Notes: a model not told the origin generated them from the sequence alone. 64,000 bases of DNA from Solirubrobacterales bacterium (GCA_047605325.1 JASGFX010000008.1:6100-70099), one strand, 5' to 3'; counted from the stretch's first letter, positions 11,333-60,178 are shown. Made by a program: numbers and translations.

Positions 11333-11654
11333 TTGCGTCGGTTATCGGATCCCGGGAGGGGCGCCGGCCACGGGGGTTCTGGCGAGCGGGCCCACGGGGT
11401 CCGAGGGTGAAGTCGCGAGGTGCCTGCCTGGCAGCGCGACATATTTCAAATTGTGTGACGCGGATGCCTCGGACCGTCCGACGATGGCTGAAAACCGATG
11501 TCGATCGGGGGCTCTTCCTCGGTCCGCAAGCGGCGGGGGAGCCGCTGCTGCGAGGTTACCCGATCGTATTGCGAACTAATCAGTATTTCGAACACCCGTT
11601 TAGGGTATGGAACCCAGCCGGAAGCTGGGTCCTCTAGGTGCTCTGAAAGAGGAA

Positions 11655-11889
11655 AACATCGGGGCGCCCAGATTTGAACTGGGGACCTCACCGACCCGAT
11701 CCGGCGCAGGGCGCTTCAGCGCGCACACTGCAAGCCAGAAGAGAAGAAGAACATCGGGGCGCCCAGATTTGAACTGGGGACCTCACCGACCCGATCCGGC
11801 GCAGGGCGCTTCAGCGCGCACACTGCAAGCCAGAAGAGAAGAAGAACATCGGGGCGCCCAGATTTGAACTGGGGACCTCACCGACCCGA
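11655..11889 (-). repeat. Tandem 95-bp repeat: two identical units plus a partial third. Each starts with 2 nt of flank plus the 3'-terminal 41 nt of tRNA-Pro
   Basis: Units 11655..11749 and 11750..11844 read identical by eye. The shared core CATCGGGGCGCCCAGATTTGAACTGGGGACCTCACCGACCCGA recurs at 11657, 11752 and 11847 (period 95). The third copy is the 3' part of the intact tRNA. Confidence 0.9.
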
Positions 11890-11922
11890 ACGGTGCGCGC
11901 TACCAGGCTGCGCCACGCCCCG
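11849..11922 (-). tRNA. tRNA-Pro (anticodon CGG), no encoded CCA
   Basis: Manual cloverleaf on the minus strand: CGGGGCG-UG-GCGC-AGCCUGGUA-GCGC-G-CACCG-UUCGGGU-CGGUG-AGGUC-CCCAG-UUCAAAU-CUGGG-CGCCCCG-A. This is 74 nt with all stems Watson-Crick paired. Confidence 0.92.
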
Positions 11923-11945
11923 AATGCGCGGGGATTATCGCAGAC

Positions 11946-14032: not shown

Positions 14033-14437
14033 GCGGTGGGGTTCCTTTCCGCCGATCCGACAATTTGGGCAAGAGGGGAAAGTCTGGGGAAAGGTGTAAA
14101 CGGATCGACCACTCCACTTTAGCATGAAGCGGAGCGAGTGCTCCGGTTATGCGCCGATCCGCATCGGCCTTACGTCATCGGATCCCTGACGTCGCAGAAA
14201 AACGGACGAGCGGATCGGCGCAACCCGGTCCCGCGCCTGACCGCGTATCCGGCGATTCCGTCATCTGAAATCGCCGGGTCGTGAACCGGGGGGGGAAGGT
14301 CACACGACGGTCTGCGCAAGCTTTTGGTCGCCCCTGAGCTATGTGGCGAGTAGTCCCTGTCAAAACCTCGTACAACGGTACAAAGCGAATTGTTACCCGC
14401 AAGTCGCACAATAAAGCATCTCGGGGACGATTTGCGG

Positions 14438-14504
14438 AGTAACCTTTCAGTTACTTAGCTTCCGGCAAGAAGAGCGCAAATTGCACGTATTTTCGACTGT
14501 GCAA
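14438..14504. promoter_or_regulatory. Candidate TetR operator palindromes in the AT-rich region upstream of the 14510 TetR gene
   Basis: AGTAAC-ctttca-GTTACT (14438..14455) and TTGCAC-N12-GTGCAA (14481..14504). The second overlaps the AAGGAG Shine-Dalgarno just before the ATG at 14510. Confidence 0.3.
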
Positions 14505-20474: not shown

Positions 20475-20560
20475 GCGGTTGGCGTAGGCAAGCGGGAAAT
20501 CTTCCAAGGTCTCTCCCGTCGGGAGAGACCTTGGAGCAAAAGGCCCTTACCCAAGCGGGA
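20475..20560. repeat. Palindromic repeat element, copy A (degenerate), also a likely terminator of the desaturase gene
   Basis: 15-bp perfect stem TCCAAGGTCTCTCCC-gtc-GGGAGAGACCTTGGA (20503..20535). The left flank is homologous to copy B. 9-bp direct repeats CAAGCGGGA occur at 20489 and 20552. Confidence 0.8.
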
Positions 20561-20601: not shown

Positions 20602-20617
20602 GCGAACATACGTTCGT
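20602..20617. promoter_or_regulatory. LexA (SOS) box upstream of / overlapping the imuB start
   Basis: gCGAAC-ATAC-GTTCGt matches the actinobacterial consensus TCGAAC-N4-GTTCGA. A TTGACA -35-like hexamer lies at 20581..20586. Confidence 0.75.
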
Positions 20618-22094: not shown

Positions 22095-22104
22095 TGGATC
22101 CCTC

Positions 22105-22176
22105 GTAGACAAGGGCCAGATCTTCCAACGGGCGTCCCCGCGGGGTCGCCCGTTGGAAGATCTGGCCCTTGTCTAC
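22105..22176. repeat. Palindromic repeat element, copy B: near-perfect 72-bp palindrome in the convergent gap imuB / CDF
   Basis: GTAGACAAGGGCCAGATCTTCCAACGGGCG-tCCCCGCGGGGt-CGCCCGTTGGAAGATCTGGCCCTTGTCTAC. The 30-bp arms are perfect and the centre is itself palindromic. Confidence 0.9.
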
Positions 22177-22211
22177 GCCAACCGCCCGCGGACCTTCGAT
22201 GCCCATCGCCG

Positions 22212-23235: not shown

Positions 23236-23251
23236 TCGAACATATGTTCGT
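23236..23251. promoter_or_regulatory. LexA (SOS) box with adjoining -10 element upstream of dnaE2
   Basis: TCGAAC-ATAT-GTTCGt is immediately preceded by TAGAAT (23231..23236), 49 nt upstream of the dnaE2 ATG. Confidence 0.8.
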
Positions 23252-23299: not shown

Positions 23300-26200
23300 A
23301 TGGCCGAATACGTAGAGCTCCACGCCCACAGCGCGTATTCGTTTCACGATGGTGTGAGTCAACCGCATGAGCTTGCGGCGGCTGCGGCCGAGCGCGGGTA
23401 TGCCGCCTTTGCGCTGACCGATCACGACGCGGTGCACGGCAGCATGGAGTTCGCCCACGCGGCTGCGCCGCTGGGGGTCAAGGCGATCCACGGCACCGAA
23501 CTGACGCTCGACCGGGGCCATCACGTCACGTTGATCGCCGAAAACCAGCGCGGCTGGTCGACGCTCTGCCGGCTGCTGACCGCGGCCCACGCGAGCACTC
23601 GGAGCGCAGACGCGCAGCGCTCGCCGCAGCAGCCGTGCGTCTCGCTCGACCAGTTGCTCGCGCACGCCGAGGAGGGCGCTGGGGGCCTGATCTGCCTCTC
23701 TGGCTGCGCGGCGCGCGGAGTCCTCGCGGCGCGAATCGCGCGCGGCGAGGTCGGCGCGGCCGAAGGGATCGCACGCCGGCTGCTCGGTGCGTTCGGCCGT
23801 TCGCACTTCCGGGTCGAACTCCAGCGACCGTTCCAGCGCCATGACCGTCAGCTGAACCAGGCGCTGGAGAGGATCGCCGAAAATCTGAAAGTTCCCACTG
23901 TCGCCACCGGCAATGTCCACGCCCACGCGCGGGAGCGTGCCGCGCTGCAGGATGTCTTCGTCGCCGTCAAACACAACGCTTCGCTCGACGAAACCGAGCC
24001 GCTGCGCCGCGGAAACAGCTCACATGTGCTGGTCGCTCCGCGCGAGATGACGCGGCGTTTTGCCGAGCACCCGCGTGCGGTCGCCGAGACGGCCGAGATC
24101 GCCCGGAGAATCGACTTCGACCTGACCGCAGACCTCGGCTATCGCTACCCCGGAGCCGAGGATCCCGAGCAGGGGAAGCGACTGCGCGCCGTCTGCGAGC
24201 AGCGGCTGATCGAACGCTACGGCGATTCCGGGGATCGCGAGGGGAGCAGCGTCGGTCGCCGACGGGTCGGCATCAAGGAAGCACGTGCGCGACTCGAACA
24301 AGAGCTTCGCGTCATCGAGAAGCTGCGCCTGCCCGGTTTCTTCCTGATCCATCACGACCTGCTCGAGATGGCGCGCGAGGTTGCGTGTGAGGTGCGCGGC
24401 AGCAGCGACGCCCGCGGGGTGTTACCGCCAGGGCGGGGGCGCGGCTCATCGGTCTCGTCGATCGTCTGTTACCTGACCGGCCTCTCGCACGTCGATCCGC
24501 TGGAGGCCAACCTCTGCATCGGCCGCTTTCTGCACGAGGAGATCACTTCGCTCCCCGACATCGATCTCGACTTCCCGCGCGACATCCGCCAGGAATTGAT
24601 CCCGCGTGTCCACGAGCGCTACGGGCATGAACGCTCGGCGTTGGTTGCGGCCTTCCCGACCTATCGCACGCGCGGTGCGCTGCGTGCGCTGGCCAAGGCG
24701 CTGGCGCTTCCCACTCCGGAGATAGAGCGCATCCTGCGCACCGCCGACCGCAGCTACGGCGAAGGACTGACAGAGCGCGTCGAGGCGGCGATCCGCGAGT
24801 CGCCGGCCGGTTCGCGGATGCTCGCCTCATCGCGCTGGCAGGCGCTGCTCAGGCTGCTGCCACAGATCCACCGCCTGCCGCGCGGACTCTCGCAGCACTC
24901 GGGCGGAATGGTGATCAGCACCGATCCGCTGATCGACGTCTGTCCGGTGGCGCCGGCCGCGATGCCGCGCAGGCAGATCGTGCAGTGGGACAAGGATTCG
25001 TGTTCGGACGCCGGCTTCGCGAAGATCGACCTGCTCGGCCTGGGGATGCTCAGCGCGGTTGAGCGCATCGTGGACCTGATCGACGGCGCGCGCGATGAGC
25101 GCGTCGATCTCTCGCGCATCCCGCTCGACGACCCCGAGACCTTCCGTCAGATCCGTGGCGCCGAGACGACCGGTGTATTCCAGATCGAGAGTCGCGCGCA
25201 GATGCAGATGCTCGTGCGCTCGCGGCCGGAGACGCTGGGTGACATCTTCATCCAGGTCGCGATCGTGCGCCCGGGACCGATCACCGGCGGCGCAGTGCAT
25301 CCCTATCTCGAGCGGCGCAAGTTGCTGCGCGCCGATCCGAGCTACAAGGTGCCGATGCCGCACCCGTTGCTCGAGGACGTGCTCGGTGAGACGCTCGGCG
25401 CGATTGTCTTCCAGGACCAGGTGATCGAGGTCGCACGGGCACTGGCCGACTTCTCGCCGTCGGAGGGCGAGGGGTTGCGGCGAGCGATGAGCCGCAAGCG
25501 CAGCAAGGAGGCGCTGGTCGCGTATCACCGGCGGTTCGTCGACGGTGCGGCGCAGAACGGAGTCAGTGAAGGGATCGCCGAGGAAGTGTTTGCGCAGGTC
25601 GTCGGATTTTCGGGATTCGGATTCCCGAAGGCTCATGCCGCGGCGTTCGGGCTGCTCGCCTACCAGACCTCGTGGCTGCGCGCCCATTACCCGGCCGAGT
25701 TTCTCTGCGGCCTCATGAACGAGCAGCCGATGGGTTTTTACCTGCCCGACGCTCTGGCCCACGAGGCTCAGCGCCGCGGCCTGACCGTACTGCCGCCGGA
25801 TGTCAACGCGAGTGGGGTGGAGTGTTCGGTCGAGTGGATCGAGTCTGATCGGGGTGAATCAAGCGTGTCGCCACAGGCAAGCCAAAAAGTGCCCCAACCT
25901 ACGTCTTTGGAAGGAGCTCAAAGACGTAAGTTGGGGCAGAGAACTGCTTTGGAATCGCGAAGCTCGATGGAGCTGGCTGTGCGCATCGGGCTGGGCTATG
26001 TGAAAGGCGCCAAGGAGACAGGGCTGAGATCTCTGGTCGCTGCTCGTGCCGAGGGTGGCCTGTTCAAAACCGTCGAGGATCTCGCCAGCCGTTCCGGCGC
26101 CGACGGTTCCACCCTCGAGAAGCTCGCCTGGGCCGGGGCCTGTGACGACGTCGGCACAGACGGAGCGGCGCGCACCAGGAGGGAGGCGCTGTGGCTGCTC

Positions 26201-26875
26201 GGTGCCGCGCCGGCCGGAGAGACGAAGGCCGATGAATCGGCCCAGCTCGCCCTGCCGATCGCACCGTTGCCGGCGCCGCGTCTGAACAAGCTCGGCGATT
26301 GGGAAGAGATGGTGGCCGACTACGGCGCGACCGGCCTCACGGTCGGCACGCATCCCCTCGAGCTTCTGCGCGAGGGGCTCGACGGACAGAACGTCCTCCA
26401 GACCACGGCGATCGACCGCGCGCCCGAGGGAACATTTGTGAAGGTCTCGGGTCTGGTCGTCGCGCGCCAACGTCCTGGCACGGCCAAGGGGGTGGTGTTC
26501 GTCCTGCTCGAAGATGAGGTCGGTGTCGTCAACCTGATCCTGCCGCCGCCGATCTACGTCAAGCACCGCGTCGTGGTGCGCAGCGAGCCGCTGCTGACGG
26601 CGAGCGGCAAGGTCGAGCGCCGCACCGGCGCGACCAACGTGATCGTCACCCACATCAGCCCGTTGCTGGGCAAGGACGTCGAAGATGCCGTGCGTCAGAT
26701 CCGCCGCCCGGCCACCAGCGAGCAGGACGTACGCGGCAAGATGGGTATCGACACCGACACCGCACTGGCCGCGATGAACGGTGATTTCGATGCGGCGCGC
26801 AAGGTTATGGGCGAAGCTGCCGACATAAGGGCTGTCGCTCCGGTCGGAATCAACTTCGGCCGCAAGGGGCGCTGA
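23300..26875 (+). CDS. dnaE2: Error-prone DNA polymerase III alpha-like subunit DnaE2 (ImuC)
   Basis: 1191 aa with an N-terminal PHP domain (YVELHAHSAYSFHDGVS), a polymerase core (GVFQIESRAQM, VAIVRPGP, FPKAHAAAFGLLAYQTSWL) and a C-terminal OB fold. LexA box upstream. Confidence 0.9.
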   Translation: MAEYVELHAHSAYSFHDGVSQPHELAAAAAERGYAAFALTDHDAVHGSMEFAHAAAPLGVKAIHGTELTLDRGHHVTLIAENQRGWSTLCRLLTAAHASTRSADAQRSPQQPCVSLDQLLAHAEEGAGGLICLSGCAARGVLAARIARGEVGAAEGIARRLLGAFGRSHFRVELQRPFQRHDRQLNQALERIAENLKVPTVATGNVHAHARERAALQDVFVAVKHNASLDETEPLRRGNSSHVLVAPREMTRRFAEHPRAVAETAEIARRIDFDLTADLGYRYPGAEDPEQGKRLRAVCEQRLIERYGDSGDREGSSVGRRRVGIKEARARLEQELRVIEKLRLPGFFLIHHDLLEMAREVACEVRGSSDARGVLPPGRGRGSSVSSIVCYLTGLSHVDPLEANLCIGRFLHEEITSLPDIDLDFPRDIRQELIPRVHERYGHERSALVAAFPTYRTRGALRALAKALALPTPEIERILRTADRSYGEGLTERVEAAIRESPAGSRMLASSRWQALLRLLPQIHRLPRGLSQHSGGMVISTDPLIDVCPVAPAAMPRRQIVQWDKDSCSDAGFAKIDLLGLGMLSAVERIVDLIDGARDERVDLSRIPLDDPETFRQIRGAETTGVFQIESRAQMQMLVRSRPETLGDIFIQVAIVRPGPITGGAVHPYLERRKLLRADPSYKVPMPHPLLEDVLGETLGAIVFQDQVIEVARALADFSPSEGEGLRRAMSRKRSKEALVAYHRRFVDGAAQNGVSEGIAEEVFAQVVGFSGFGFPKAHAAAFGLLAYQTSWLRAHYPAEFLCGLMNEQPMGFYLPDALAHEAQRRGLTVLPPDVNASGVECSVEWIESDRGESSVSPQASQKVPQPTSLEGAQRRKLGQRTALESRSSMELAVRIGLGYVKGAKETGLRSLVAARAEGGLFKTVEDLASRSGADGSTLEKLAWAGACDDVGTDGAARTRREALWLLGAAPAGETKADESAQLALPIAPLPAPRLNKLGDWEEMVADYGATGLTVGTHPLELLREGLDGQNVLQTTAIDRAPEGTFVKVSGLVVARQRPGTAKGVVFVLLEDEVGVVNLILPPPIYVKHRVVVRSEPLLTASGKVERRTGATNVIVTHISPLLGKDVEDAVRQIRRPATSEQDVRGKMGIDTDTALAAMNGDFDAARKVMGEAADIRAVAPVGINFGRKGR
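25891..25937. repeat. Palindromic repeat element, copy E, embedded in-frame in dnaE2
   Basis: GCCCCAACCTACGTCTTTG-gaaggagct-CAAAGACGTAAGTTGGGGC (19-bp arms, 1 mismatch). The flank CAAGCCAAAAAGTGCCCC resembles copy D. Locally about 50% G+C. Confidence 0.8.
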
Positions 26876-27975: not shown

Positions 27976-28843
27976 TCGATCTGTGGGAATCGGCGGGCGC
28001 CAGCTCTCGCCGTTGCCCGGACCGGCCGAACAGAAGCCGCTGCCGCCGGGCGACTTCGAACGCTTCTGCCGCGGCGTCAAGGACATGCTCGGCGTCGATC
28101 TCTCGACGTACAAGCGCAAGCAGATGGAGCGCCGCGCCCGCGGGATGGCCACGCGCAGCCATGCCGAGACCCTCACCGAGTACCTGCAGATGCTCAAGGA
28201 CGACCCCGTTCTGCTCGACCGCTTCATGGAACGGATGACGATCACCGTCAGTCAGCTCTGGCGCAACACCGACATCTTCGAGGCGATCGAGCAGATGATC
28301 CTGCCCGAGCTCGACGAGACTGCAGAAGGCCGCAAGCTGAAGCTCTGGTCGGCAGGCTGCTCGTACGGCGCCGAGCCCTACACGCTCGCGTCGATCTGCC
28401 TCGAGATGGGGCGCAAGCTCTCGCAGGTGCCCCAGATCAAGGGCACCGACATCAACCCACGGATGATCGAGCAGGCCAAGCGCGGTCACTTCACCGACGA
28501 GGACGCCCGCGACGCTCCGCCGCGACTGTTGCAGAAATACTTCGACCGCCCCCAGGGCGGCGGTTGGACGGCGAAGCCCGAGCTCAGGGCGATCACCCAA
28601 TTCAAGGTCGAGGATCTGTTCGCGTCGAAGAAGGAGCCTGTGGACCTGATCCTCTTCCGGAACGTCGCCATCCACTTCGAACGCGAGAAACGCGACGAAG
28701 TTCACGGCATCCTCGCGGACGCGCTGCGTCCGGGTGGAATCCTTGTGCTCGGATCGACCGAGATGATCATCGGTCCGGCCGAGATCGGGCTCGAGCGCGT
28801 ACGTCCCTTCGTCTTCCGCAAGTCAGCTCAAGGCGCGGCCTGA
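27968..28843 (+). CDS. cheR: Chemotaxis protein methyltransferase CheR
   Basis: FERFCRGVKDMLGVDLSTYKRKQMERR (CheR N-terminal domain) and a SAM-binding region LWSAGCSYGAEPYTLA...FRNVAIHF. Confidence 0.9.
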   Translation: MSDRSVGIGGRQLSPLPGPAEQKPLPPGDFERFCRGVKDMLGVDLSTYKRKQMERRARGMATRSHAETLTEYLQMLKDDPVLLDRFMERMTITVSQLWRNTDIFEAIEQMILPELDETAEGRKLKLWSAGCSYGAEPYTLASICLEMGRKLSQVPQIKGTDINPRMIEQAKRGHFTDEDARDAPPRLLQKYFDRPQGGGWTAKPELRAITQFKVEDLFASKKEPVDLILFRNVAIHFEREKRDEVHGILADALRPGGILVLGSTEMIIGPAEIGLERVRPFVFRKSAQGAA

Positions 28844-30711
28844 TGGCGATCGACAACTCTGAATACGTCGAACTCTTCCTCGCCGAGGCACGCGAGAACC
28901 TTGAAACGCTGAACAATGCGATCGTCGGCGTCGAGGCCGACCCGGGCGACCGCGCGAATCTCGACGCCGTCTTCCGCGTCGCCCACTCGGTCAAAGGGAT
29001 GGCCGCGACGATGGGCTACGACCAGGTCGCCGGCCTGACCCACGCGATGGAGGATGTCTTCGCGGCGCTGCGTGAACGCGGCGGAGAGATCGAACGCGAG
29101 GCGATCGACACGCTGTTTGCCTGCATGGACTCGCTGTCGGCGATGGTCGACGAGATCGCGGCGGGCGGCGAGAGCAAGACCGATCCGGCACCGCTCGAGG
29201 CCCGGCTGCGCGCGCTGCTCGAGGCGTCGAGCACCGCCAAGAAGCCTGCGCCGCGCAAGCCTGCCGCAAGGAAGCCTGCGGCGGCGAAGAAGCCGGTCGC
29301 CAAGGCGGCTCCCGCCAAGAAGCCCGCTGCTCGCAAGCCGGCCGCCAAATCTGTCGCCGCGAAGAAGCCGGCCGCCGCCAAGAAGCCGGCCGCGACGCGA
29401 AAGCCTGCCGCCAAGAAGCCTGCCGTTCGCAAGCCCGCAGCTGCGAAAGTCCCGACGCCGCCGACACCCGAGCCCGAACGGTCCGCAGAAGCGACTCAGC
29501 ACGATGTCGTCGACGCCGCCGTCCGCGACGCTCAGTCGCGCGCGACCGTGCGCGTCGAAGCCAAGCGCCTCGACACCCTGCTGCACATGATCGGCGAGCT
29601 CGTCGTCCGCCGCTCGGCCGTCGAGCAGCTCGCCGCGGAGAGCGGCGACGGTCGATTGACGGCGGCGGTCGGCGAGATGACCCGCGCCTCGCAGCAGGTC
29701 CAGGACATGGTCATGCGCGTGCGCATGGTCCCGATCGAGATGGCATTCGCCCGTCTGCCCAGACTCGTGCGAGATCTTTCGCACCAACTGGGCAAAGAAG
29801 TCAGCATGGACATCAAGGGCGGCGACACCGAGCTCGACCGCACCGCCGTCGACGCGCTCGTCGAGCCGCTGATGCACATCATCCGAAACGCGATCGACCA
29901 CGGCATCGAGACTCCGGACGTTCGTGAGCGCGCGGGCAAGTCGGCCGAGGGTGAGCTGACGATCTCTGCCCGCCACGAGGGCGGAGAGGTTGTCATCGCG
30001 ATCAGCGACGACGGCGCCGGGATCGATGCGGCGGCGGTGGTCGCCCGAGCCAGGGAGCGCGGCCTGATTGCGCCCGATGCCGAGCTCGAGGGCGATCAGG
30101 CCGTGGAGCTGCTGTTCGCGCCCGGTTTCTCGACTCGTGCGGAGGTCACCGACGTCTCCGGTCGCGGCGTGGGGATGGATGCGGTCAGATCGGCCGTGCG
30201 CGGCTTCGGCGGCGACGTCTCAGTGCGTTCGAAGCTAGGCGAAGGTACGACGACAGAAATGCGTATGCCGCTGACGCTCGCGATCCTTCCGGCGCTCGTC
30301 GTGCGCTCGTCTGGCGATCCGTACGCGTTGCAGCTCGACCGCGTCGATCGCACTTTCAAGCTTGAAGAAGTGAACCTCACGACCACGATGGGCCAGCCGG
30401 TCGTGGTCTTCGACGAGGGCGCGATGCCGGTGGTGAACCTCTCCGAGGCGTTCAACCGCGATCCTGCAGAAGACAGCGCCCAGTTCATGGTCACTGTGCG
30501 CTCTGCCGATAGACAACTAGCCCTTGTGGTGGATGAGATGGTCGGTCGCCGAGAGTTGGTGACGCGTCCTGTGCCCGAGAGAGTGCGCAGGGACTCGCCG
30601 GTTTCCGGCGGCGCGGTGCTTGCCAGCGGCGAGATCGCCTTCATCGTCGACTGCGAGGAGCTGATCCGAAGAACGCTTGTGGAGCCGGCTCGCAGCGGCT
30701 CCCGTCAGTAA
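28843..30711 (+). CDS. cheA: Chemotaxis histidine kinase CheA (P1-Hpt, basic A/K/P-rich linker, P3, P4, P5)
   Basis: Hpt FRVAHSVKGMAATMG; dimerisation/kinase regions (RVEAKRLDTLLHMIGELV, HIIRNAIDHGIE, DDGAGID, GRGVGMDAV); C-terminal CheW-like domain. The start at 28843 gives a TGATG overlap with cheR. The ORF track starts at 28564, inside cheR. Confidence 0.9.
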   Translation: MAIDNSEYVELFLAEARENLETLNNAIVGVEADPGDRANLDAVFRVAHSVKGMAATMGYDQVAGLTHAMEDVFAALRERGGEIEREAIDTLFACMDSLSAMVDEIAAGGESKTDPAPLEARLRALLEASSTAKKPAPRKPAARKPAAAKKPVAKAAPAKKPAARKPAAKSVAAKKPAAAKKPAATRKPAAKKPAVRKPAAAKVPTPPTPEPERSAEATQHDVVDAAVRDAQSRATVRVEAKRLDTLLHMIGELVVRRSAVEQLAAESGDGRLTAAVGEMTRASQQVQDMVMRVRMVPIEMAFARLPRLVRDLSHQLGKEVSMDIKGGDTELDRTAVDALVEPLMHIIRNAIDHGIETPDVRERAGKSAEGELTISARHEGGEVVIAISDDGAGIDAAAVVARARERGLIAPDAELEGDQAVELLFAPGFSTRAEVTDVSGRGVGMDAVRSAVRGFGGDVSVRSKLGEGTTTEMRMPLTLAILPALVVRSSGDPYALQLDRVDRTFKLEEVNLTTTMGQPVVVFDEGAMPVVNLSEAFNRDPAEDSAQFMVTVRSADRQLALVVDEMVGRRELVTRPVPERVRRDSPVSGGAVLASGEIAFIVDCEELIRRTLVEPARSGSRQ

Positions 30712-32442: not shown

Positions 32443-33882
32443 ATGACTCAGCCCAATACACGCAAGTCGCAACAGTCCAGAGCGCAGCGGCTGCTTCCGC
32501 AATGGTTTCTCGACCTCGACGCCGCCAGGAAGCCATACGTGATCGTAGGTCTGGTGCTTGTCGGGATCGTCCCGCTGCTGGCGCTCGCGATCAATGCGGG
32601 CGCGGATCTGAAGAACGACACCGAGGCTCTCAACGAATTGCTCTCGCGTTCGCACCCCAACCCCGAGGCGCTGCAGGCCGCTGCCGAGACGATCCACAAC
32701 GACTGGGTTCGCTACGCGATCGGCATGATCGGCGCCGCCGTCTGGGCACTCGTGATCGCGGTCGGCGGCGCTCGCGTGACTGCCCATGTCGCGCATCTCT
32801 GGGTCAGGGATCTCACTGACTCCGCCCGCCGCATCGCTGCCGGCGACCTTTCGATCGCGATCGAGCGGGACAACGGCAGTCAGGTCGGCGACATCCAGGA
32901 GTCGATGGGCAAGATGATCGCCTCTTTCCGGGCGACCGTCACCCGCATTGAGCGCGCGGCATCCGAGCTGACCGAGGCGGCCGGCGAGATGGCCGAGACA
33001 TCCGAGAACTCCGGCCGCGCGATCGGAGAAGTCGCACAGTCGATCAGCGCGATCAGTGAAGGCGCCGCGCATCAAGTCTCACTGATCACCGACGCGTCGG
33101 GCGTGGTGGGGGAGATCGAACGCTCGGTCGTCGAGGCCGCGCGCAACGCCTCGGCTTCACAGCAGGAGAGCGCGCAGACGCAGCAGCTGACCGAGATCGG
33201 CGTCGAGCGCGCCACCGAGATCCAGTTGGCGATGCAGACTGTTCGCGACGCGACACATTCGACCGTGGAGATGGTGCGGTCGCTCAGCGAGACTTCCGCC
33301 GACATCGACGAGATCGTCCGTGCGATCACCGGGATCGCCGGCCAGACCAACCTCCTCGCGCTCAACGCCGCGATCGAGGCCGCACGCGCCGGCGAACAGG
33401 GCCGCGGTTTCGCGGTCGTCGCCGAAGAGGTGCGCAAGCTCGCCGAGGATTCCGAACGTTCGGCCTCTGGGATCGCTGAGCTGATCGACGCGATCCAGCT
33501 GCAGACCGAACAGGCTGTCGCAGCGATGGAGGAGGGGATGGGCACGGTCGATCGCGGCTTCGACGCCGTCTCGCGCAATCGCCAGCTCTTCTTCGACATC
33601 AGCGGCGCGGTGCGGCTCTTCCACGAGAGCTCCGTGGAGATCGCGCAGCTCTCGAGCACGATCGCGGGGGACGCCGGCCGCGTACGCGAGCGCATCGAAG
33701 AGGTCGCGTCCGTCGCGCAGGAATCGAGCGCATCGACCGAGCAGGTGTCGGCCTCGACCCAGCAGACTTCCGCCTCGTCGCAGGAGCTCACTGCCGCGGC
33801 CCAGCGCGTCTCGCAGACCGCTGTGGCGTTGAAGGAGCTCGCAGCGCGCTTCTCGACCGACAACAACGGGAGTGCGGCATGA
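32443..33882 (+). CDS. Methyl-accepting chemotaxis protein (type-A N-terminus)
   Basis: 2 TM plus HAMP plus a signalling domain with the highly conserved hairpin [36 protein letters not shown] chose the ATG at 32443 (MTQPNT). Confidence 0.9.
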
Positions 33883-35288
33883 TCCGCTGGATGCAGTCGG
33901 TGCCGCTCAAGCGCGCCTACTCGGTCTCGACGCTTTTCTACACGCTGCCGATCCTGCTGCTGGCGCTGCTGCTGACGCTCGTCGCGCACTGGACGGTCAG
34001 CGACGCAAACGACGCCGTCGCCGTCGCCGCCGAGGGCGGACGTCACGCCTCGATCTCGTTCACCGACTTCGCGCTCGAGTTTGCGGCGATCGTGTTGATC
34101 GTCGCGCTGGTCGGCGGGATCATCACCAAGCTGATGCTGACGAATGTGCTGATGCGCGAGACCTACAAGCTCGTTGACGCCACGCGCGCGGCAGCCGGCG
34201 GTGACCTCCGACCGGACATCGAGGTGACGCTCGCCAATGAGTACGGCCAGCTCCAGGATTCCGTGCGCGGGCTGTTCGGCGCCTTCCGCACCGCGGTGAC
34301 GCGGATCGACGCGGCGGCGCTCGAAATGCGCGCGGCAAGTGGTGAAATGACCCACACTTCTGACGAATCCGGCCGCGCGATCGGCGAGGTCGCCGTGGCC
34401 GTCGGGGCAATCAGCGAGGGCGCGGCCCACCAGTCGACACTCGTCACCGATGTCTCCGACGTGATGGCTGAGATCGAGCATGCGATCAACGACGCGGCCG
34501 AACACGCCAACGAGGCCCAGCGCCAGAGCGCCGACACCGAGCGGCTCGCCGAGAGTGGCGTGCAGGCGGCGTCCGACGTGCTCGAGGCGATGGAGACCGT
34601 GCGCACCGAGTCGCTCGCGACCGCCGCGGTGATCCGCGAGCTCGGCGAGAAGTCGCAGAGCATCGACCAGATCGTCGGCGCGATCACCGAGATCGCCCAG
34701 CAGACAAACATGCTTGCGCTCAACGCCGCGATCGAGGCGGCCCGTGCCGGCGAAGCCGGCCGCGGCTTCGGAAATGTTGCGGGTGAAGTCCGCGCACTGG
34801 CCGACGACGCGCAGAACTCCGCAGACCAGATCGACCGGCTCGTCGGTCAGATCCAGAACCAGACCGGTGCGGCGGTGCAGGCGATGGAAGAGGCCGTGAT
34901 CGCCGTCGAGGCCGGCTTCGCCACGATCGACTCCAATCGCGCGACGTTCTTCGACATCGGCACGGCGGTGCACAACCTGCACGAGAGCGCGGGCGAGGTC
35001 AGTGAGCTGGCCGCCGGAATCGCGCTTGGTGCGAGCCAGGTGCGCAAGCAGATCGAGGAGGTGGCGGCGGTCGCTGAGGAATCCTCGGCCTCGACCGAAG
35101 AGGTCTCGGCCGCCACCGAAGAGACTTCCGCCGGAGCGCACGAGGTTTCGGAAGCCGCGCAGCGCGTCGCCCAGACGGCCTACAACCTGTCGGAGCTGGC
35201 CGGACGATTCCAGCTGCCCGACGGCACAGCCGCATCCGGCGGTTCAACTCCTCCGGACGACGGGCCGATAGGAGATCTCAGGGACTGA
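33879..35288 (+). CDS. Methyl-accepting chemotaxis protein (type-B N-terminus)
   Basis: ATGA overlap with the preceding mcp. Signalling hairpin: [35 protein letters not shown]. Confidence 0.9.
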
Positions 35289-35294
35289 TCATCG

Positions 35295-35774
35295 ATGAAC
35301 TCCGCTGAGACCACAGTCACGCGCCAACTGGTTGTCTTCCGCCTCGGCAACGAGGAGTATGCGCTGCCGATCCAGACAGTGCAGGAAGTGATCCGTTTCC
35401 AACACCCGCGCACCGTGTCGAGCTCCGACGCGTCGTTGCTGGGTGTGATCAACCTGCGGGGCCGCATCGTGCCGGTTCACGATGTGCGCCCCCAGCTCAA
35501 CATCAAGCACGATCCGCTGCCGGAAGGCCCCTCCGGCACAGAGGATGACGACTCCGACTCCGAGAAGATCGTGCTCGTCAACATCGACGAGCGGATGGCC
35601 GGAGTGGTGGTCGACGATGTTTCCGAGGTCCTCACGGTCGAGGCCGAGGAGTTCGAGGATCTGCCGGCTGCGGGCGGCCCGATCGTCGATGGCGTCGTGA
35701 AGGCGGGCGACCGTCTGATCATCCTGCTTGAGCCCCGAGCGCTGACTGATCTCGCCGACGGCGAAACTGCCTGA
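35295..35774 (+). CDS. cheW: Chemotaxis coupling protein CheW
   Basis: QLVVFRLGNEEYALPIQTVQEVIRF...GVINLRGRIVPV...VVDDVSEVL. Confidence 0.9.
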   Translation: MNSAETTVTRQLVVFRLGNEEYALPIQTVQEVIRFQHPRTVSSSDASLLGVINLRGRIVPVHDVRPQLNIKHDPLPEGPSGTEDDDSDSEKIVLVNIDERMAGVVVDDVSEVLTVEAEEFEDLPAAGGPIVDGVVKAGDRLIILLEPRALTDLADGETA

Positions 35775-35886
35775 GCGGTCAGTTACTACGAAATTTTGAT
35801 TACCGCACTTATGGGATGGGCGCGGGCGGCCGACATCACCTGTAGGCCGGGCGCGACGGCAGACGGAGAGCGCCGGCCGGGACAAG

Positions 35887-37398
35887 ATGCACACACAATA
35901 TTCAAGCTCAGACGAGCTGCGCGCGGCGCGGCTCTTCCCCCAATGGTTCAAAGATCTTGACGCCAAGCTCAAGCCTGTCGTTTCCGCGCTGGTGCTGCTC
36001 GCGGTGGCGGCTCCGGTCGTCGTCTACACGGTCATTCAGTGGCGCCGCGCCTCGGACGTCAGCGCGCAGATCGGCGCACTGCTTGCCGATGGAGGCAAGA
36101 GCGCCCAGCTCGCGGAGCTGACGCACCAGTTCGAGCACTACAACACGCACGCGATGCTTGGCATCATGGTCAGCGGCCTGATCGCCGCGATCGGTGCGAT
36201 GTGGATCGCCTACGCGACTTCGAAGCTCGCAGCCGTCTGGTTGACTTCGCTCGCCGACCGCGTCGGGCGCGCAGCCGACGGGGACCTCACGACCGAGATC
36301 GTTCGCGACAACAAGAGCCAGATCGGCGACGTGCAGGAAGCTCTGGGCAAGATGATCGGCAGCTTCAACGCCACCGTCGCGCGAATAGACCGCGCCGCCG
36401 AGGATCTGCGCGAGGCCTCCTCCGAGATGAGCGGGATCACCGACGAGGCCGGGCACGCGGTCGGAGAGGTTGCCCACTCGGTGGCGATCATCAGCATCGG
36501 CGCCGGCAATCAGGTCGAACTGATCGCCGAGACTTCCGCCGAGGTCGGGGCGATCGAGATCGCCGTGAGCGATGCCGCCCGCCACGCTGAGCGCGTCAGC
36601 GAGCAGAGCCTCGCCACCGTCGCGCTCACTGAAGAGGGCGTCAGGCGCGCCGCCGAGATCGAGGACGCGATCGGGCACGTGCGTGACACGGGCATGGCGA
36701 TGGCCAAGCTGATCCACGAGCTCGGTGAGAAGTCGACTGACATCGACCTGATCGTCGGGTCGATCGCTGACATCGCCGAGCAGACGAATCTTCTCGCGCT
36801 CAACGCCGCGATCGAGGCTGCCCGCGCCGGCGAACAGGGCCGTGGTTTCGCGGTCGTCGCCGAAGAGGTGCGCAAGCTCGCCGAGGAGGCCCAGGTCCGC
36901 GCGGACGAGATCGCCGGCATGACCGACGGAATTCGCGAGAACACGGAGCGCGCGATCGGTGCCGTCAAGGACGGATCGCCGACTGTGATCGACAGTCTCA
37001 AGGCGGTCGGTGAGAACCGCAAGGCGTTCGCCGAGATCAGCGGCGCAGCGGCAGCCCTCAACGATGCGACCGAGAAGATCGCGACGCTGGCCGCCACGAT
37101 CGCGAACGATGCTTCGCAGGTGCGCGCCGAGATCGAAGACATCGCGTCTGTCGCCGAGGAGTCTTCCGCGTCGACCGAGCAGGTCAGCGCTGCGACCGAG
37201 GAATCCTCAGCGTCGGCCGAGGAGGTCACCGCTTCTGCCGGCCGGGTCGCGGCCACGGCCGGCGATCTGGCGCGCATGGTCACCGAGTTCAAACTTGCGC
37301 CGTCGAGTGATCCGAAGGTGCGCAGGCTGGTGCCGCGCTCGGAGCGCGACGCTCCGGAAGCCGAGAGCGACAGCCGCGCGAAGGAGCTGCGCGCATGA
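35887..37398 (+). CDS. Methyl-accepting chemotaxis protein (type-A N-terminus, paralog of 32443..33882)
   Basis: Shares the N-terminal motif [16 protein letters not shown] and the signalling hairpin [35 protein letters not shown]. Confidence 0.9.
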
Positions 37399-38771
37399 CC
37401 CGCAGACTTCTGAACATGCCACTGACCAGGGCGTACATGATCACGACGATCGTCGCCGTGATCCCTGCGCTCGGCTTCGGTCTCTACTACGTGGTCGCGA
37501 TGATCGGCGCCAACGGCAACGCCTCGAGTCTTCGCGATCAGGCCACCGGGGCAGGCGCGAAGATCGACGCCGGTCAGCTCGCCGGTGTGGGCCTGGAGCA
37601 CAGCGTCTGGGTCTGGGTCGCCGGACTGGTGATCACGTTCCTCTTCGCCGGAGCGGCGATTCGCATCGTGCTCGGCAACATCACCCTGAAGACTGTCGAT
37701 GAGATGGTCGTGGAGATGCGCGCGGCTGCGCGCGGTGACCTCTCGGTCAAGCTGGAGGTCACGATGAACAACGAATACGGCGATCTCCAGCGTGAGTTCG
37801 CCCGGCTTGTCGGCAACTTCCGCGGCACGATCGAGCGAATCGATGTCGCAGCTCGCGAACTGCGTTCGGCGTCGATGGACATGTCGCACACCTCCGACGA
37901 GGCCGGCGGCGCGATCGGTGAGGTCGCCCAGGCGATCGGAGCGATCAGCGAGGGTGCGGCTCATCAGGTGGAGCTCGTCGGTCGCTCGGCCGCGCACATC
38001 GACTCGATCGACCAGTCGGTCCGTGACGCGCACGAGCACGTCGATGAGGTCCGTCGTCAGAGCGCCGACGCAGGCGCCCTGGCAGACGCCGGACTCACAC
38101 GTGCGCACGCGGTCGAGAGCGCGATGCAGATCACGCGCGACGCCGCCTATTCGACGGCCGCAATCGTCCGCGAGTTGGGCGATCGCTCAGGGGACATCGA
38201 CTTGATCGTCCAGTCGATCGCCGAGATCGCCAACCAGACAAACATGCTTGCGCTCAACGCCTCGATCGAGGCCGCTCGCGCCGGAGATCAGGGCAGAGGC
38301 TTTGCCAACGTGGCCGATGAGGTGCGCGTGCTCGCCGAGGACGCGCAGCGCGCCGTCGCAGAGATCGGCGATGTCGTCGGCGAGATCGGTCGCCAGACGT
38401 CTGGAGCCGTCGAGGCGATGGAGGCCGGAATCGCTCGGGTCGAGGACAGCACCGAGACCGTTGCGCGCAACCGCCAGATATTCACCGATATCAGCGCCTC
38501 GATCCACAGCCTCGGAGAGCGTTCTGCCGAGATCGGCGAGCTGACCGCGGAGATCGTCAAGTCAGCGGAACGCGCCCGCACGCATGTGGGCGAGGTCGCG
38601 GCCGTGGCCCAGCAGTCGAGCGCCTCGACCGAAGAGGTCAGCGCTTCGACTGAAGAGACCTCGGCGGCCTCCGAGGAGGTCAGCGCCTCCGCGCAGCACG
38701 TGGCTGATACTGCGGCTGTCCTGGCCGAGCTCTCCGGACGTTTCACGTTGCCCGAGCGCTCCGCGGCCTGA
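37395..38771 (+). CDS. Methyl-accepting chemotaxis protein (type-B N-terminus, paralog of 33879..35288)
   Basis: ATGA overlap with the preceding mcp. N-terminus [16 protein letters not shown] parallels [16 protein letters not shown]. Signalling hairpin: [35 protein letters not shown]. Confidence 0.9.
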
Positions 38772-45999: not shown

Positions 46000-46431
46000 T
46001 CAGGAAGAGCTGTCGCGCGGATCCGGTCCGACGCCGGCCGTCACGCCCAGGACGCCGATGGCGGCGTAGAGGATCGCGGTCATGTCGTTGACCGGGAAAA
46101 TCCCGATCACGCTGGCCGTGAAGAGGCTCCAGACGGTCACGACGAGGTAGACCACGCCCACCGCGAGCGAGACCGGTCGTGCCATTGCATTGGAGCGGCT
46201 CCCGATCAGCAGCGCAACACCTGTGAGCAGCATCAGCAGGCCGCTCCAGCCGTTGACGTCGAGGAACAGCAACTTCTCTGTGACGATCCCTCCGCCGGTC
46301 GAGAAGTCGAAGTTGACGACCAGACTCACCACTCCCGCGATCGTGAGAATCACTCCCGCGGCGACTGCGAACATCTGAGCCATCGACTTGTCTGCGATGC
46401 CGGATCCAATGTCCTTGAATCCGTCCTTCAT
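46000..46431 (-). CDS. Small hypothetical membrane protein (4 TM)
   Basis: I chose the 143-aa version starting MKDGFKDIGSG. The upstream part of ORF 46000..46896 is Arg/Pro-rich and looks noncoding. Confidence 0.5.
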   Translation of the reverse strand: MKDGFKDIGSGIADKSMAQMFAVAAGVILTIAGVVSLVVNFDFSTGGGIVTEKLLFLDVNGWSGLLMLLTGVALLIGSRSNAMARPVSLAVGVVYLVVTVWSLFTASVIGIFPVNDMTAILYAAIGVLGVTAGVGPDPRDSSS

Positions 46432-46562
46432 GCCATGTGCTTCCACCGTAACCACCTCTTTCAGAAATCGACGGTGAATGTATCCGGCGACCCGGAATGG
46501 GCCGTCTGCTTCAAATACACCGTGACGATGCATCCAGTAACAATCGTGACAAGGAATTTGTC

Positions 46563-54363: not shown

Positions 54364-54403
54364 CGGCGGCACGCTAGCCGGGCGACCCGCGCAGCCAAGC
54401 CAA

Positions 54404-54448
54404 GTTCTTGGACAAACCTGTCCCTGAGGGAGAGGTTTGTCCAAGAAC
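54404..54448. repeat. Palindromic repeat element, copy C, in the bioF-bioD spacer
   Basis: GTTCTTGGACAAACCTgtccc-tga-gggagAGGTTTGTCCAAGAAC. The inner loop region resembles copy A. The right flank reads CCGTAGATAAGCGG on the opposite strand (compare CGTAGGCAAGCGG in A). Confidence 0.8.
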
Positions 54449-54589
54449 ACCGCTTATCTACGGGGCGCCCAAACTCATGAGCTTCGAACGAGCCTCGGGG
54501 ACCAACCCACCCATCACCGCCAGCGGCGAAGCCGCCCGCACTCAACAACCATCAGCCCGAGACCGACCGCCACTACGGCAGTCAACCGA

Positions 54590-60051: not shown

Positions 60052-60091
60052 TTCGATCGCGCGGCCGAATCCGCGCGTTCAAGCGAGAAAT

Positions 60092-60141
60092 CGCCCCGAT
60101 GAACGGTCATTGGGGCGCCCCAAAGGACACTCTTTGGGGCG
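60092..60141. terminator. Twin hairpin in the convergent gap (palindromic repeat element, copy D)
   Basis: CGCCCCGATGA-acgg-TCATTGGGGCG overlaps CGCCCCAAAG-gacact-CTTTGGGGCG. It is flanked by 10-bp direct repeats GTTCAAGCGA (60077 and 60153). Confidence 0.6.
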
Positions 60142-60178
60142 GGAAAGCGCTTGTTCAAGCGATCCCGCGCCCGCGCGT

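Follow-up and report, generated by a model that had tools for sequence, protein, structure and literature searches.

Can a palindromic repeat be accommodated inside the coding sequence of a DNA polymerase gene without closing the reading frame? This question is raised by a stretch of 64,000 nucleotides from a Solirubrobacterales bacterium (GCA_047605325.1, contig JASGFX010000008.1, positions 6100-70099), which is called the window throughout and from whose first nucleotide all coordinates are counted. A previous reading made from the DNA alone (the sequence-only reading) had proposed that a palindromic element is inserted in frame within dnaE2, the gene of an SOS mutagenic polymerase. From the analyses described below, we consider it quite probable that the segment 25878-25957 represents one member of a palindromic repeat family, dispersed and structured, that is found in Thermoleophilia (Solirubrobacterales, Thermoleophilaceae), and that this copy landed in frame in the SOS-regulated dnaE2 gene. 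The family resembles repetitive extragenic palindromic sequences (REPs) and REPINs, or MITEs (miniature inverted-repeat transposable elements). Loci fetched from related genomes are denoted L001, L002 and so on, and orthologous proteins P0002, P0003 and so on.

A palindromic element within the dnaE2 reading frame

The host gene and the parts of the element are the following:

23300..26875, plus strand: dnaE2 (error-prone DNA polymerase, ImuC type), an intact open reading frame (ORF) of 1191 amino acids that hosts the element, assigned from the ORF list, translation, Pfam matches, orthologs and synteny
25878..25957, plus strand: intact palindromic element of 80 nucleotides (nt), full-length match to covariance model R1 (cmsearch 85.3-85.4 bits, E ~1e-19, model positions 1-80); this copy belonged to the training set of R1, and its own score is thus not independent
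25878..25890, plus strand: leader CAAGCCAAAAAGT, a conserved AAGC(S) followed by an A-rich unpaired stretch; AAGC and AAA are invariant in 11 copies
25891..25909, plus strand: left arm of the hairpin, GCCCCAACCTACGTCTTTG
25910..25918, plus strand: hairpin loop of 9 nt, GAAGGAGCT
25919..25937, plus strand: right arm of the hairpin, CAAAGACGTAAGTTGGGGC, with one C/A mismatch to the left arm
25938..25957, plus strand: trailer AGAGAACTGCTTTGGAATCG, made up, in this order, of an A-rich unpaired stretch, a GCTT capable of pairing with the AAGC of the leader, and TGGAATCG

The hairpin was recovered as proposed, with arms of 19 nt, one mismatch and a loop of 9 nt, and it extends to 20 nt at 95% when the flanking T/A is counted. 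When up to three mismatches were allowed, the arm sequence was present at only these two places of the window, compared with an expectation of 0.01. Folding of 25870-25965 yielded -42.3 kcal/mol for RNA (z = -5.5) and -24 kcal/mol for DNA (z = -5.25), and none of 200 shuffled sequences was as good. An exact recount reproduced the low G+C content of the segment 25881-25950, i.e. 35 of 70 nucleotides, in a window with a fraction of 0.666 and a dnaE2 gene with a fraction of 0.673. Stretches of 70 nt with a GC fraction at or below 0.50 make up 0.4% of the window; apart from the element, the main patches with such stretches are located at 14061-14491 and 46401-46511. The element is read without a stop codon as SPQASQKVPQPTSLEGAQRRKLGQRTALESRS (residues 857-888 of the 1191 residues), in line with the earlier claim. 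The leader had been compared with that of an intergenic copy called copy D, and the two (CAAGCCAAAAAGTGCCCC at 25878 and CAAGCGAGAAATCGCCCC at 60080) indeed match at 14 of 18 positions.

The insertion relative to orthologs and its place in the protein

The sequence-only reading had stated that DnaE2 proteins have only a short linker at this position. Segment lengths were obtained from an alignment of the 60 best orthologs, and between CSVEW and LAVRIGLGYVKG the closest of them (P0002-P0007, 77-84% identity) contained 2-8 residues, compared with 43 in the window protein. The nearest ortholog, P0002 of locus L006 (84% identity), has the codons TGG ATC GAC GAC GAA CTG GCC, i.e. WIDDELAV, at the insertion point. 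Comparison at the codon level revealed that the window has 129 nt where L006 has GACGAC:

25841..25969, plus strand: whole insertion relative to the nearest ortholog, residues 848-890, 43 codons in place of 2 codons of L006 (net +41 codons, GC 0.535)

Elsewhere, the two proteins do not differ in length by 12 or more residues. The 41 additional codons at the WIDDELAV site bear out the in-frame insertion of the palindromic element. An insert of at least 12 amino acids after P0002 residue 848 was found in 17 of 34 orthologs. The refuting condition named by the sequence-only reading, a homologous segment of equal length and normal GC content in orthologs, was not borne out: the nearest orthologs have short loops, and where a long loop is present, it consists of a low-GC palindromic element of this same kind and not of ordinary coding sequence.

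The insertion is also visible at the level of the protein. The HHH_6 Pfam match is stretched to 128 residues for 86 profile positions, and the alignments to solved structures of the DNA polymerase III (Pol III) alpha subunit end at query residues 838-844. In an AlphaFold2 model calculated from 45 sequences, the strands 843-848 and 890-895 had predicted local distance difference test (pLDDT) values of 83-89, and the residues 851-888 had values below 50; a helix was drawn with low confidence at residues 874-888. Because confident strands flank the low-pLDDT residues 851-888, the model puts the insert at the tip of a beta-hairpin where the helix-hairpin-helix domain begins, and there it probably forms a flexible surface loop. 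Annotators and modellers of DnaE2/ImuC proteins should expect a variable and probably disordered insert at this loop.

Conserved base pairing of related elements in the same loop

For six further long-loop orthologs (L001, L002, L003, L004, L005 and L007), the DNA was retrieved, and each contained an element of about 80 nt that follows the same plan. It consists of a leader (C/T/A)AAGC(C/G)...AAA, a hairpin of about 20 bp and a trailer CA(A/G)AA...GC.T.GGAATC(G/A). In L003, two intact copies (L003a and L003b) are arranged in tandem in the dnaE2 loop. All 8 aligned dnaE2 copies from the 7 orthologs have one orientation and one frame, in which the AGC of the leader is read as serine. The eight copies align over about 80 nt, the length of the conserved unit, and AAGC, AAA, CA/TG and GTC/GAC are invariant. 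The stem comprises about 20 bp, of which positions 12-15 are occupied by (C/T/A)GTC paired with GAC(G/A/T), and the loop length varies from 3 to 19 nt. Several stem subtypes could be discriminated. One of them, CCCCAACCTACGTC, is common to the window and L001, and a variant of it, CATCAACATACGTC, is found in L007; another, CCGCATGC(T/C)C(C/T)GTCCATGC, is present in L002, L004 and L003b, and the stems of L003a and L005 represent further subtypes.

RNAalifold predicted 20 base pairs for the eight dnaE2 copies, and 14 of these contained compensatory double changes. For 11 copies, three of them intergenic, 98.2% of the cells were paired and 52 cells had double changes, a result that none of 500 shuffles reached. 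As a control, the pairing partner was slid by 1-3 columns, and only 32-39% remained paired. The encoded peptides differ completely between the subtypes, with the exception of an invariant serine and lysine at the start and an invariant serine at the end, and these residues coincide with the invariant nucleotides AAGC, AAA and GGAATC. These results showed that base pairing is conserved, whereas the stem sequence and the encoded peptide are not.

About ten more orthologs had other palindromic or low-complexity inserts in the same loop, and in the dnaE2 genes examined, long palindromes were located only at this loop. The dnaE2 gene of GCA_040960765.1 (L019 12731-13117) contains four perfect hairpins of a related composite subtype. 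They are organized as two units of the plan X-loop-X', 29-nt spacer, X'-loop-X; the two units differ by compensating changes (CCACGGGTCGGCA versus CCAACGTCCGGCA), and the spacer AAAGAATTTGGCTTGG is similar to the trailer of the family. The second stem of these dnaE2 hairpins recurs in an intergenic copy of the same locus (L019 1313-1379). In a Thermoleophilaceae dnaE2 gene (L020 12455-12718, protein P0042), the loop contains a strongly self-complementary insert with 73% GC, and the motif PRPAGPVGC.PSPS.GR of its peptide is common to P0034, P0039, P0040 (partly), P0042 and P0046. This insert appears to represent a different palindromic family at the same site, unrelated to the window element.

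Copies of the family outside dnaE2

The covariance model R1 was built from the eight dnaE2-internal copies only. For its calibration, chance sequences pre-selected for the invariant bases were used, namely viral, Rothia and SAR324 matches, and these scored 14-22 bits. Four intergenic loci of the window are of relevance:

20489..20557, plus strand: family copy between a desaturase gene and the imuB-like gene, with direct CAAGCG repeats at its flanks (R1 29.8 bits, E 3e-5 to 1e-4)
60080..60160, plus strand: family copy (copy D) between convergent genes, with two inner hairpins and direct TTCAAGCG repeats at its flanks (R1 25.8 bits, E 4e-4 to 1e-3)
54396..54463, plus strand: weak candidate copy with a CAAGCC leader, a 17-bp hairpin and a CCGCTT trailer (R1 17.3 bits, E 0.06, within the range of chance)
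22104..22177, no strand assigned: near-perfect palindrome, its 37-nt arms 97% complementary and without a spacer, situated between the 3' ends of the imuB-like and cation-efflux genes (R1 15 bits)

Because chance scores reach 14-22 bits, the copies at 20489 and 60080 are above background and the candidate at 54396 is not. Thus, a model trained on dnaE2 copies supports the claim that the hairpin and its flanks resemble intergenic copies of the window. The claim has to be qualified with regard to degree: leader, architecture and trailer are shared, but the overall likeness is modest and the stems differ. The spot orthologous to 22104-22177 holds R1 matches in L002 (8900-8968, 22 bits) and L017 (8903-8971, 34.8 bits), and the window palindrome may be a family member whose internal loop (AGATCT) turned self-complementary.

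Intergenic matches to R1 were also found in other Thermoleophilia genomes, with 81 bits in L009, 69 bits in L013 and 66 bits in L008. In the flanking DNA of the loci, additional intergenic matches besides those of L017 and L002 were located at L019 1313-1379 (32.2 bits) and L012 7685-7752 (25 bits). A strict pattern scan of one genome per species (185,579 genomes) resulted in six matches. Four of them were real and all of these were from Thermoleophilia, i.e. a dnaE2 copy in the metagenome-assembled genome (MAG) CAKZMQ01 and the intergenic copies L009, L013 and L008; the Rothia and SAR324 matches were due to chance. L009 is located on another contig of the CAKZMQ01 MAG, and its stem is identical to that of the dnaE2 copy of this MAG (L003b); the L012 7685 copy also belongs to this MAG. 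L013 and L008 carry stems of the window type, and the trailer GCTTTGGAAT is common to the window element and the intergenic copies L019 1313-1379 and L009 2890-2970. Scans of two other collections returned only chance matches, two non-palindromic ones in metagenome_contigs and three with 14-16 bits in viral_contigs.

Copies placed side by side have several family-wide features, namely a leader AAGC(S), a trailer (S)GCTT that is able to pair with the leader, often TGGAAT(C), and A-rich unpaired stretches on both sides of the stem, on the same strand. As these one-strand stretches break the symmetry of the palindrome, the family has a defined strand. The outer AAGC/GCTT pairing was recovered with an alignment of intergenic copies only, in which the stems were too poorly registered for a reciprocal covariance model; by eye, L012 retains the outer stem through compensating changes (ATGGGG/CCCCAT). 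By our own reading, most intergenic copies (8 of 9) lie just after the end of a gene or between convergent genes, and the A-rich strand of the copies at gene ends mostly equals the sense strand of that gene. From about 290 kb that had not been selected by pattern, we estimate an intergenic density of about one copy per 40 kb. The roughly 450 kb scanned with R1 revealed no in-frame copy in genes besides dnaE2. Direct AAGC(S) repeats flank the window copies at 20489, at 60080 and in dnaE2 as well as L003a and L005, and not the others. Together, these findings establish a dispersed family with several copies at unrelated loci that share sequence and structure. Apparently, neither the family with its architecture nor its recurrent occupation of a single DnaE2 loop across a bacterial class has been described before.

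Probable repeated insertion or replacement at the dnaE2 site

In a neighbor-joining tree of 34 orthologs, the carriers of the element were scattered, and for each of them there was a close relative whose loop is short. The genes of the nearest sisters L001 and L002 are 90% identical, and the stems of the two differ at 7 of 20 pairs, all of them compensated. Between the window and L001, gene identity is as low as 76% (56% at third codon positions), but their elements have 17 of 17 basal stem bases in common and nearly identical flanks. The stem subtypes are therefore decoupled from the dnaE2 gene tree. In both genomes in which a comparison was feasible, the dnaE2 copy matched the intergenic copy of its own genome: the L003b stem equals the stem of intergenic L009 from the same MAG, and the dnaE2 hairpins of L019 match the intergenic copy of L019 at 12 of 13 positions. 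Sliding-window identity in the 75 nt on either side of the insert gave no recombination signal. Because these flanks follow the gene tree, import of the element along with flanking dnaE2 sequence could be ruled out.

Losses can also be recognized. L016 looks like L007 minus the hairpin, with a deletion between GAAAC direct repeats and retention of the trailer. Directly upstream of the intact element in the window, a further scrap was noted:

25841..25877, plus strand: probable trailer-only remnant of a second, upstream copy, TCTGATCGGGGTGAATCAAGCG, called by eye from its likeness to the L009 trailer GGCTGATCGGAATCAAGGGCG and not from a model score

As this segment resembles a solitary trailer, the window probably once held two tandem copies, as L003 does today, the second of which has decayed. 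The stems ignore the gene tree and match the intergenic copies of their own genomes; the best explanation is that the occupant of the loop was repeatedly inserted or replaced, by transposition or gene conversion, and was also lost by deletions that left scraps of leader or trailer. In these orthologs, the dnaE2 loop is an insertion hot spot. It should be noted that the dnaE2 copies were found through intact proteins, which introduces a bias against disrupted alleles.

The host gene is a LexA-boxed SOS polymerase gene

The identity of the host gene was analyzed by several approaches. The product of 1191 residues contains the Pfam domains PHP, DNA_pol3_alpha, DNA_pol3_finger, HHH_6 and OB. Four of the five matches exceed the curated cut-offs, and the OB fold (tRNA_anti-codon) reaches 25.6 compared with a cut-off of 27. 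The top matches in the PDB are Pol III alpha chains (E 1e-114), an NCBI protein of a Solirubrobacterales MAG is identical to the product, and homologs bear the annotation error-prone DNA polymerase. In every locus examined, an imuB-like gene of the Y-family (IMS-family) is located two genes upstream. The neighborhood was the same in all related loci fetched, with imuB-like and cation-efflux genes upstream and cheB-cheR-cheA downstream; in some of them, a Fic/MazE pair is also present upstream. Two LexA boxes were identified:

23237..23250, plus strand: perfect LexA box of the Cheo type, CGAACATATGTTCG, 50 nt upstream of the dnaE2 ATG and adjoining TAGAAT
20603-20616: perfect LexA box of the Cheo type, CGAACATACGTTCG, at the start of the imuB-like gene

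Both boxes fit CGAACATAYGTTCG perfectly, and they are the only perfect matches to CGAACNNNNGTTCG in the 64-kb window. Upstream of the imuB-like gene, conservation of the region with promoter and box extends to L006, L016 and L017. Because of the domain set, the imuB-like neighbor and the perfect LexA boxes, the host gene is dnaE2, an SOS mutagenic polymerase gene with predicted LexA control, as the sequence-only reading had assumed.

A possible mechanism and alternative explanations

Because the pairing is conserved and the A-rich unpaired flanks are confined to one strand, the unit may be recognized as a single-stranded hairpin, of DNA or RNA, by a factor acting in trans. In dnaE2, read-through of the insert would yield a hydrophilic surface loop that is disordered and tolerated by the enzyme; judged by the open frame and the structural model, translation and tolerance are most likely. 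The sense orientation in dnaE2 might be kept by selection against the reverse orientation, which would place a hairpin and a T-run (ACTTTTTGG, minus strand) in the mRNA. By our own reading, at least one frame stays open in the reverse orientation, and the orientation bias is thus not explained by stop codons alone.

Several observations weigh against a mobile repeat family that landed in dnaE2. Only four of the matches to the strict pattern in 185,579 species genomes were real, the metagenome collection yielded no real match, and the copy number was sampled, at about one intergenic copy per 40 kb of DNA examined. The intergenic copies of the window itself score 17-30 bits and have unrelated stems. 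The restriction of in-frame copies to dnaE2 is odd for a selfish element that inserts at random, and direct AAGC(S) repeats, which are ambiguous as target-site duplications, flank only about 5 of 18 copies. No mobilizing enzyme was identified, the only transposase noticed in the fetched loci was an IS1595 DDE gene in L001, and neither a genome-wide nor a PF01797 screen was made. A terminator and promoter consensus scan of 25500-26300 found nothing on either strand, but its loop limit of 8 nt excludes the 9-nt loop of the element. Translation of the insert is deduced from the open frame alone. In addition, the site may instead have received the element once, long ago, and then have undergone gene conversion and numerous deletions. 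With respect to the DDE gene, it is located at L001 5086-6018 (GCA_021731605.1), belongs to the IS1595 family of transposase genes, and lies near the imuB-like gene.

It is possible, though on balance unlikely, that the dnaE2 loop serves the element family as a specific target, through site recognition by the insertion machinery, or as a home whose occupancy is positively selected. A selected role could be that of an mRNA or DNA hairpin that damps or times the expression of the mutagenic polymerase, e.g. as a site for a double-strand RNase or as a block to antisense transcription. Such a home would agree with the identical loop, orientation and frame of all 8 aligned copies from 7 orthologs, with the presence of different subfamilies at this site in different clades (four composite hairpins in L019, GC-rich palindromes in L020), and with the inserts of at least 12 amino acids there in 17 of 34 orthologs. 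The lack of in-ORF copies in other genes across the 450 kb scanned, the strong covariation and the strand-specific A-rich asymmetry point in the same direction. Furthermore, REP-carrying repair genes are sometimes the only REP-modified ORFs of a genome (Di Nocera et al., PMC3733652). However, many close orthologs lack the element and are apparently fine, the empty sites have no conserved target motif, the same elements occupy ordinary intergenic positions, the peptides are wholly different between subtypes, and the REP sites in dnaE2 of other phyla differ (residues 166-246 and 934-971). A shade less likely again is the wider proposal that the loop serves as a dedicated landing site or selected home for class-wide single-strand hairpin elements, at which different subfamilies install repeatedly in the same orientation and frame. 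If that were true, the hairpin might act in cis, limiting or timing mutasome expression or coupling the mobility of the element to DNA damage, and the locus would be a concrete and testable case bearing on the reported, unexplained enrichment of palindromic repeats in repair genes across phyla.

Three further explanations were weighed. An old, vertically inherited functional extension of DnaE2, e.g. a partner-binding loop in which the palindrome is incidental, would account for the site and frame shared by several orthologs, for the invariant serine and lysine at the start and serine at the end of the peptide, and for the helix at 874-888 that AlphaFold2 draws with low confidence. We regard it as improbable. 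The distribution is patchy, with an empty-site sister beside each carrier, and the invariant residues coincide with the invariant nucleotides AAGC, AAA and GGAATC. The pairing is conserved between subtypes (98%, 14 of 20 pairs compensated) and the amino acids are not; in addition, identical stems occur in non-coding intergenic copies, the GC fraction is 0.50 compared with 0.67 for the gene, and the pLDDT is below 50 over residues 851-888. Still harder to uphold is a local origin of the hairpin, by template switching or inverted duplication in a fast-evolving loop, with a merely coincidental likeness to the other window hairpins. The loop is hypervariable in length and composition, and the other intergenic hairpins of the window have unrelated stems and modest scores, as would be expected in this case. 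Yet, L001, the gene of which is only 76% identical, has the 17 basal stem bases and both flanks in common with the window element, stems of the same type are present in intergenic L013 and L008 of other genomes and on other contigs, and leader and trailer are conserved across all copies. Derivation of the arms from adjacent dnaE2 sequence and absence of related copies elsewhere were both contradicted. An artefact of assembly or binning also comes to mind, given that the sequence derives from a MAG; it is hardly conceivable, because related elements are present at the identical site in independent NCBI, ENA, JGI and Logan assemblies, with intact frames and conserved synteny. A copy of a dispersed repeat family within dnaE2 thus remains our preferred explanation.

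Two other readings were rejected. An attC-like reading (GCCCCAAC...GTTGGGGC compared with the core sites RYYYAAC/GTTRRRY) was ruled out because other subtypes carry CCGCATG...CATGCGG at those positions. Programmed bypassing or splicing was discarded, as every copy seen was open and in frame.

Comparison with known palindromic repeats

Palindromic repeats have been characterized in other bacteria. A survey of REPs reported that they are mostly located downstream of genes or between convergent genes, and that a minority is found in frame, with an excess in genes for DNA synthesis and repair (Di Nocera, De Gregorio & Rocco 2013, PMC3733652). The published examples include insertions in dnaE2 of O. 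terrae (Oter_4053, residues 934-971 of 1116) and of S. wittichii (Swit_1119, residues 166-246 of 1196), and in dnaE of R. conorii (residues 853-861 of 1181) (PMC3733652). Actinomycetota are absent from the phyla named in this survey. The in-frame presence of palindromic repeats in repair genes is thus already known in other bacteria, and the window case is a new example. The sequence-only reading had regarded an in-frame element in an SOS polymerase as unusual. The case is less unusual than that: the family appears to be new, but the phenomenon is not, because REPs in dnaE2 and repair genes have been published for other phyla (PMC3733652).

The GTAG/CGTC REP unit has a length of 20-40 bp, a stem of 8-9 bp, a loop of 4-5 nt, an unpaired GTAG/CGTC head and a short CCA-like tail (PMC3733652). 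The window family is similar in that it is short and palindromic, is mostly located downstream of genes or between convergent genes, has stem subfamilies, forms dimers and clusters, and has in-frame copies in a repair gene. In contrast, it has no unpaired GTAG/CGTC head, its ends are AAGC(S) and (S)GCTT, and its (C/T/A)GTC is inside the paired stem. Its stem is about 20 bp long and its unit about 80 nt, A-rich unpaired stretches flank the stem within an outer AAGC/GCTT clamp, and its hosts belong to the Actinomycetota, class Thermoleophilia. The published REP sites in dnaE2 differ from one another, whereas here one loop is used again and again. Because an unpaired tetranucleotide head is absent, the stem comprises about 20 bp and the unit about 80 nt, the window family is not a member of the GTAG or CGTC REP superfamilies. 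REPINs, the other REP-type elements mentioned above, are said to be dimers of REPs.

Rickettsia palindromic elements (RPEs), i.e. RPE-1 and its relatives, are reportedly located in frame in protein-coding genes. RPEs are AT-rich, have lengths of about 100-150 bp, and reside in many different genes of reduced intracellular genomes. Like the window element, they are palindromic, in frame, read through into an additional peptide that is thought to be surface-exposed or tolerated, and accompanied by intergenic copies. The window genome, in contrast, is free-living and has 67% GC, in-frame copies were seen in dnaE2 only, and a relationship to RPEs at the sequence level is not expected. Bacterial MITEs that can occur in frame include Correia, Nezha and the Coxiella QMITEs. 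The defining traits of MITEs are target-site duplications and terminal inverted repeats that stem from a parent insertion sequence. Both kinds of element are small, non-autonomous, hairpin-forming, dispersed and occasionally in frame in ORFs. Unlike MITEs, the window unit is one hairpin from end to end, and flanking AAGCS direct repeats are present in a minority of copies. A resemblance to intrinsic terminators exists as well, as the minus strand contains a GC-containing hairpin followed by ACTTTTTGG, and intergenic copies are located at gene 3' ends. However, the flanks on the sense strand of dnaE2 and most upstream genes are A-rich and not T-rich, and the conserved leader, trailer and outer stem are not terminator features. 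A scan of 25700-26100 against Rfam 15 gave no family above the gathering threshold, and the best of the sub-threshold miRNA-type hairpins had 22 bits compared with a threshold of 98. A literature search for palindromic repeats in Solirubrobacterales found nothing relevant.

In-frame palindromic repeats illustrate how proteins can be reshaped, and not destroyed, by selfish or structural DNA. The present case adds an undescribed, structurally conserved repeat family in the under-studied soil actinobacteria of the Thermoleophilia. It also provides an unusually clean natural series, in which one site of one gene is filled, doubly filled, decayed or empty. A link between hairpin repeats and the SOS mutagenesis machinery is possible and echoes the published, unexplained excess of REPs in repair genes. 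The covariance model R1 offers a way to census the family.

Protein searches and other features of the window

The insert peptide was also used for database searches. A peptide-profile search of a set of 5.8 billion proteins had no match, although known carriers score 47-58 bits locally, and is uninformative about other genes. The sole match of the 43-residue insert among 1.84 billion cluster representatives, P0121, is an unrelated tandem-repeat protein of 2446 residues with a chance likeness PPPTSL...RLLG.

Three additional features of the window were recorded. A tRNA-Pro(CGG) gene is located at 11848-11923 on the minus strand, within 11650-11934, and next to it lie two tandem duplicates of 95 nt (98% mutual identity), in which part of the tRNA region recurs; these duplicates look like the footprint of integrase attachment sites from an integrative element. 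At 32986-38725, four paralogous copies with spacings of 1358, 2080 and 1454 nt are 61-77% identical over segments of up to 271 nt. Judged by synteny, they are predicted to be tandem genes for methyl-accepting chemotaxis proteins downstream of the che operon. Lastly, short degenerate AAGCCTGC(C/G)-rich tandem repeats are present at 29242-29447, inside the cheA-like ORF 28564-30711, where, by our own reading, they encode a stretch rich in lysine, alanine and proline; the L006 ortholog of this ORF has a Pfam HC2 match.

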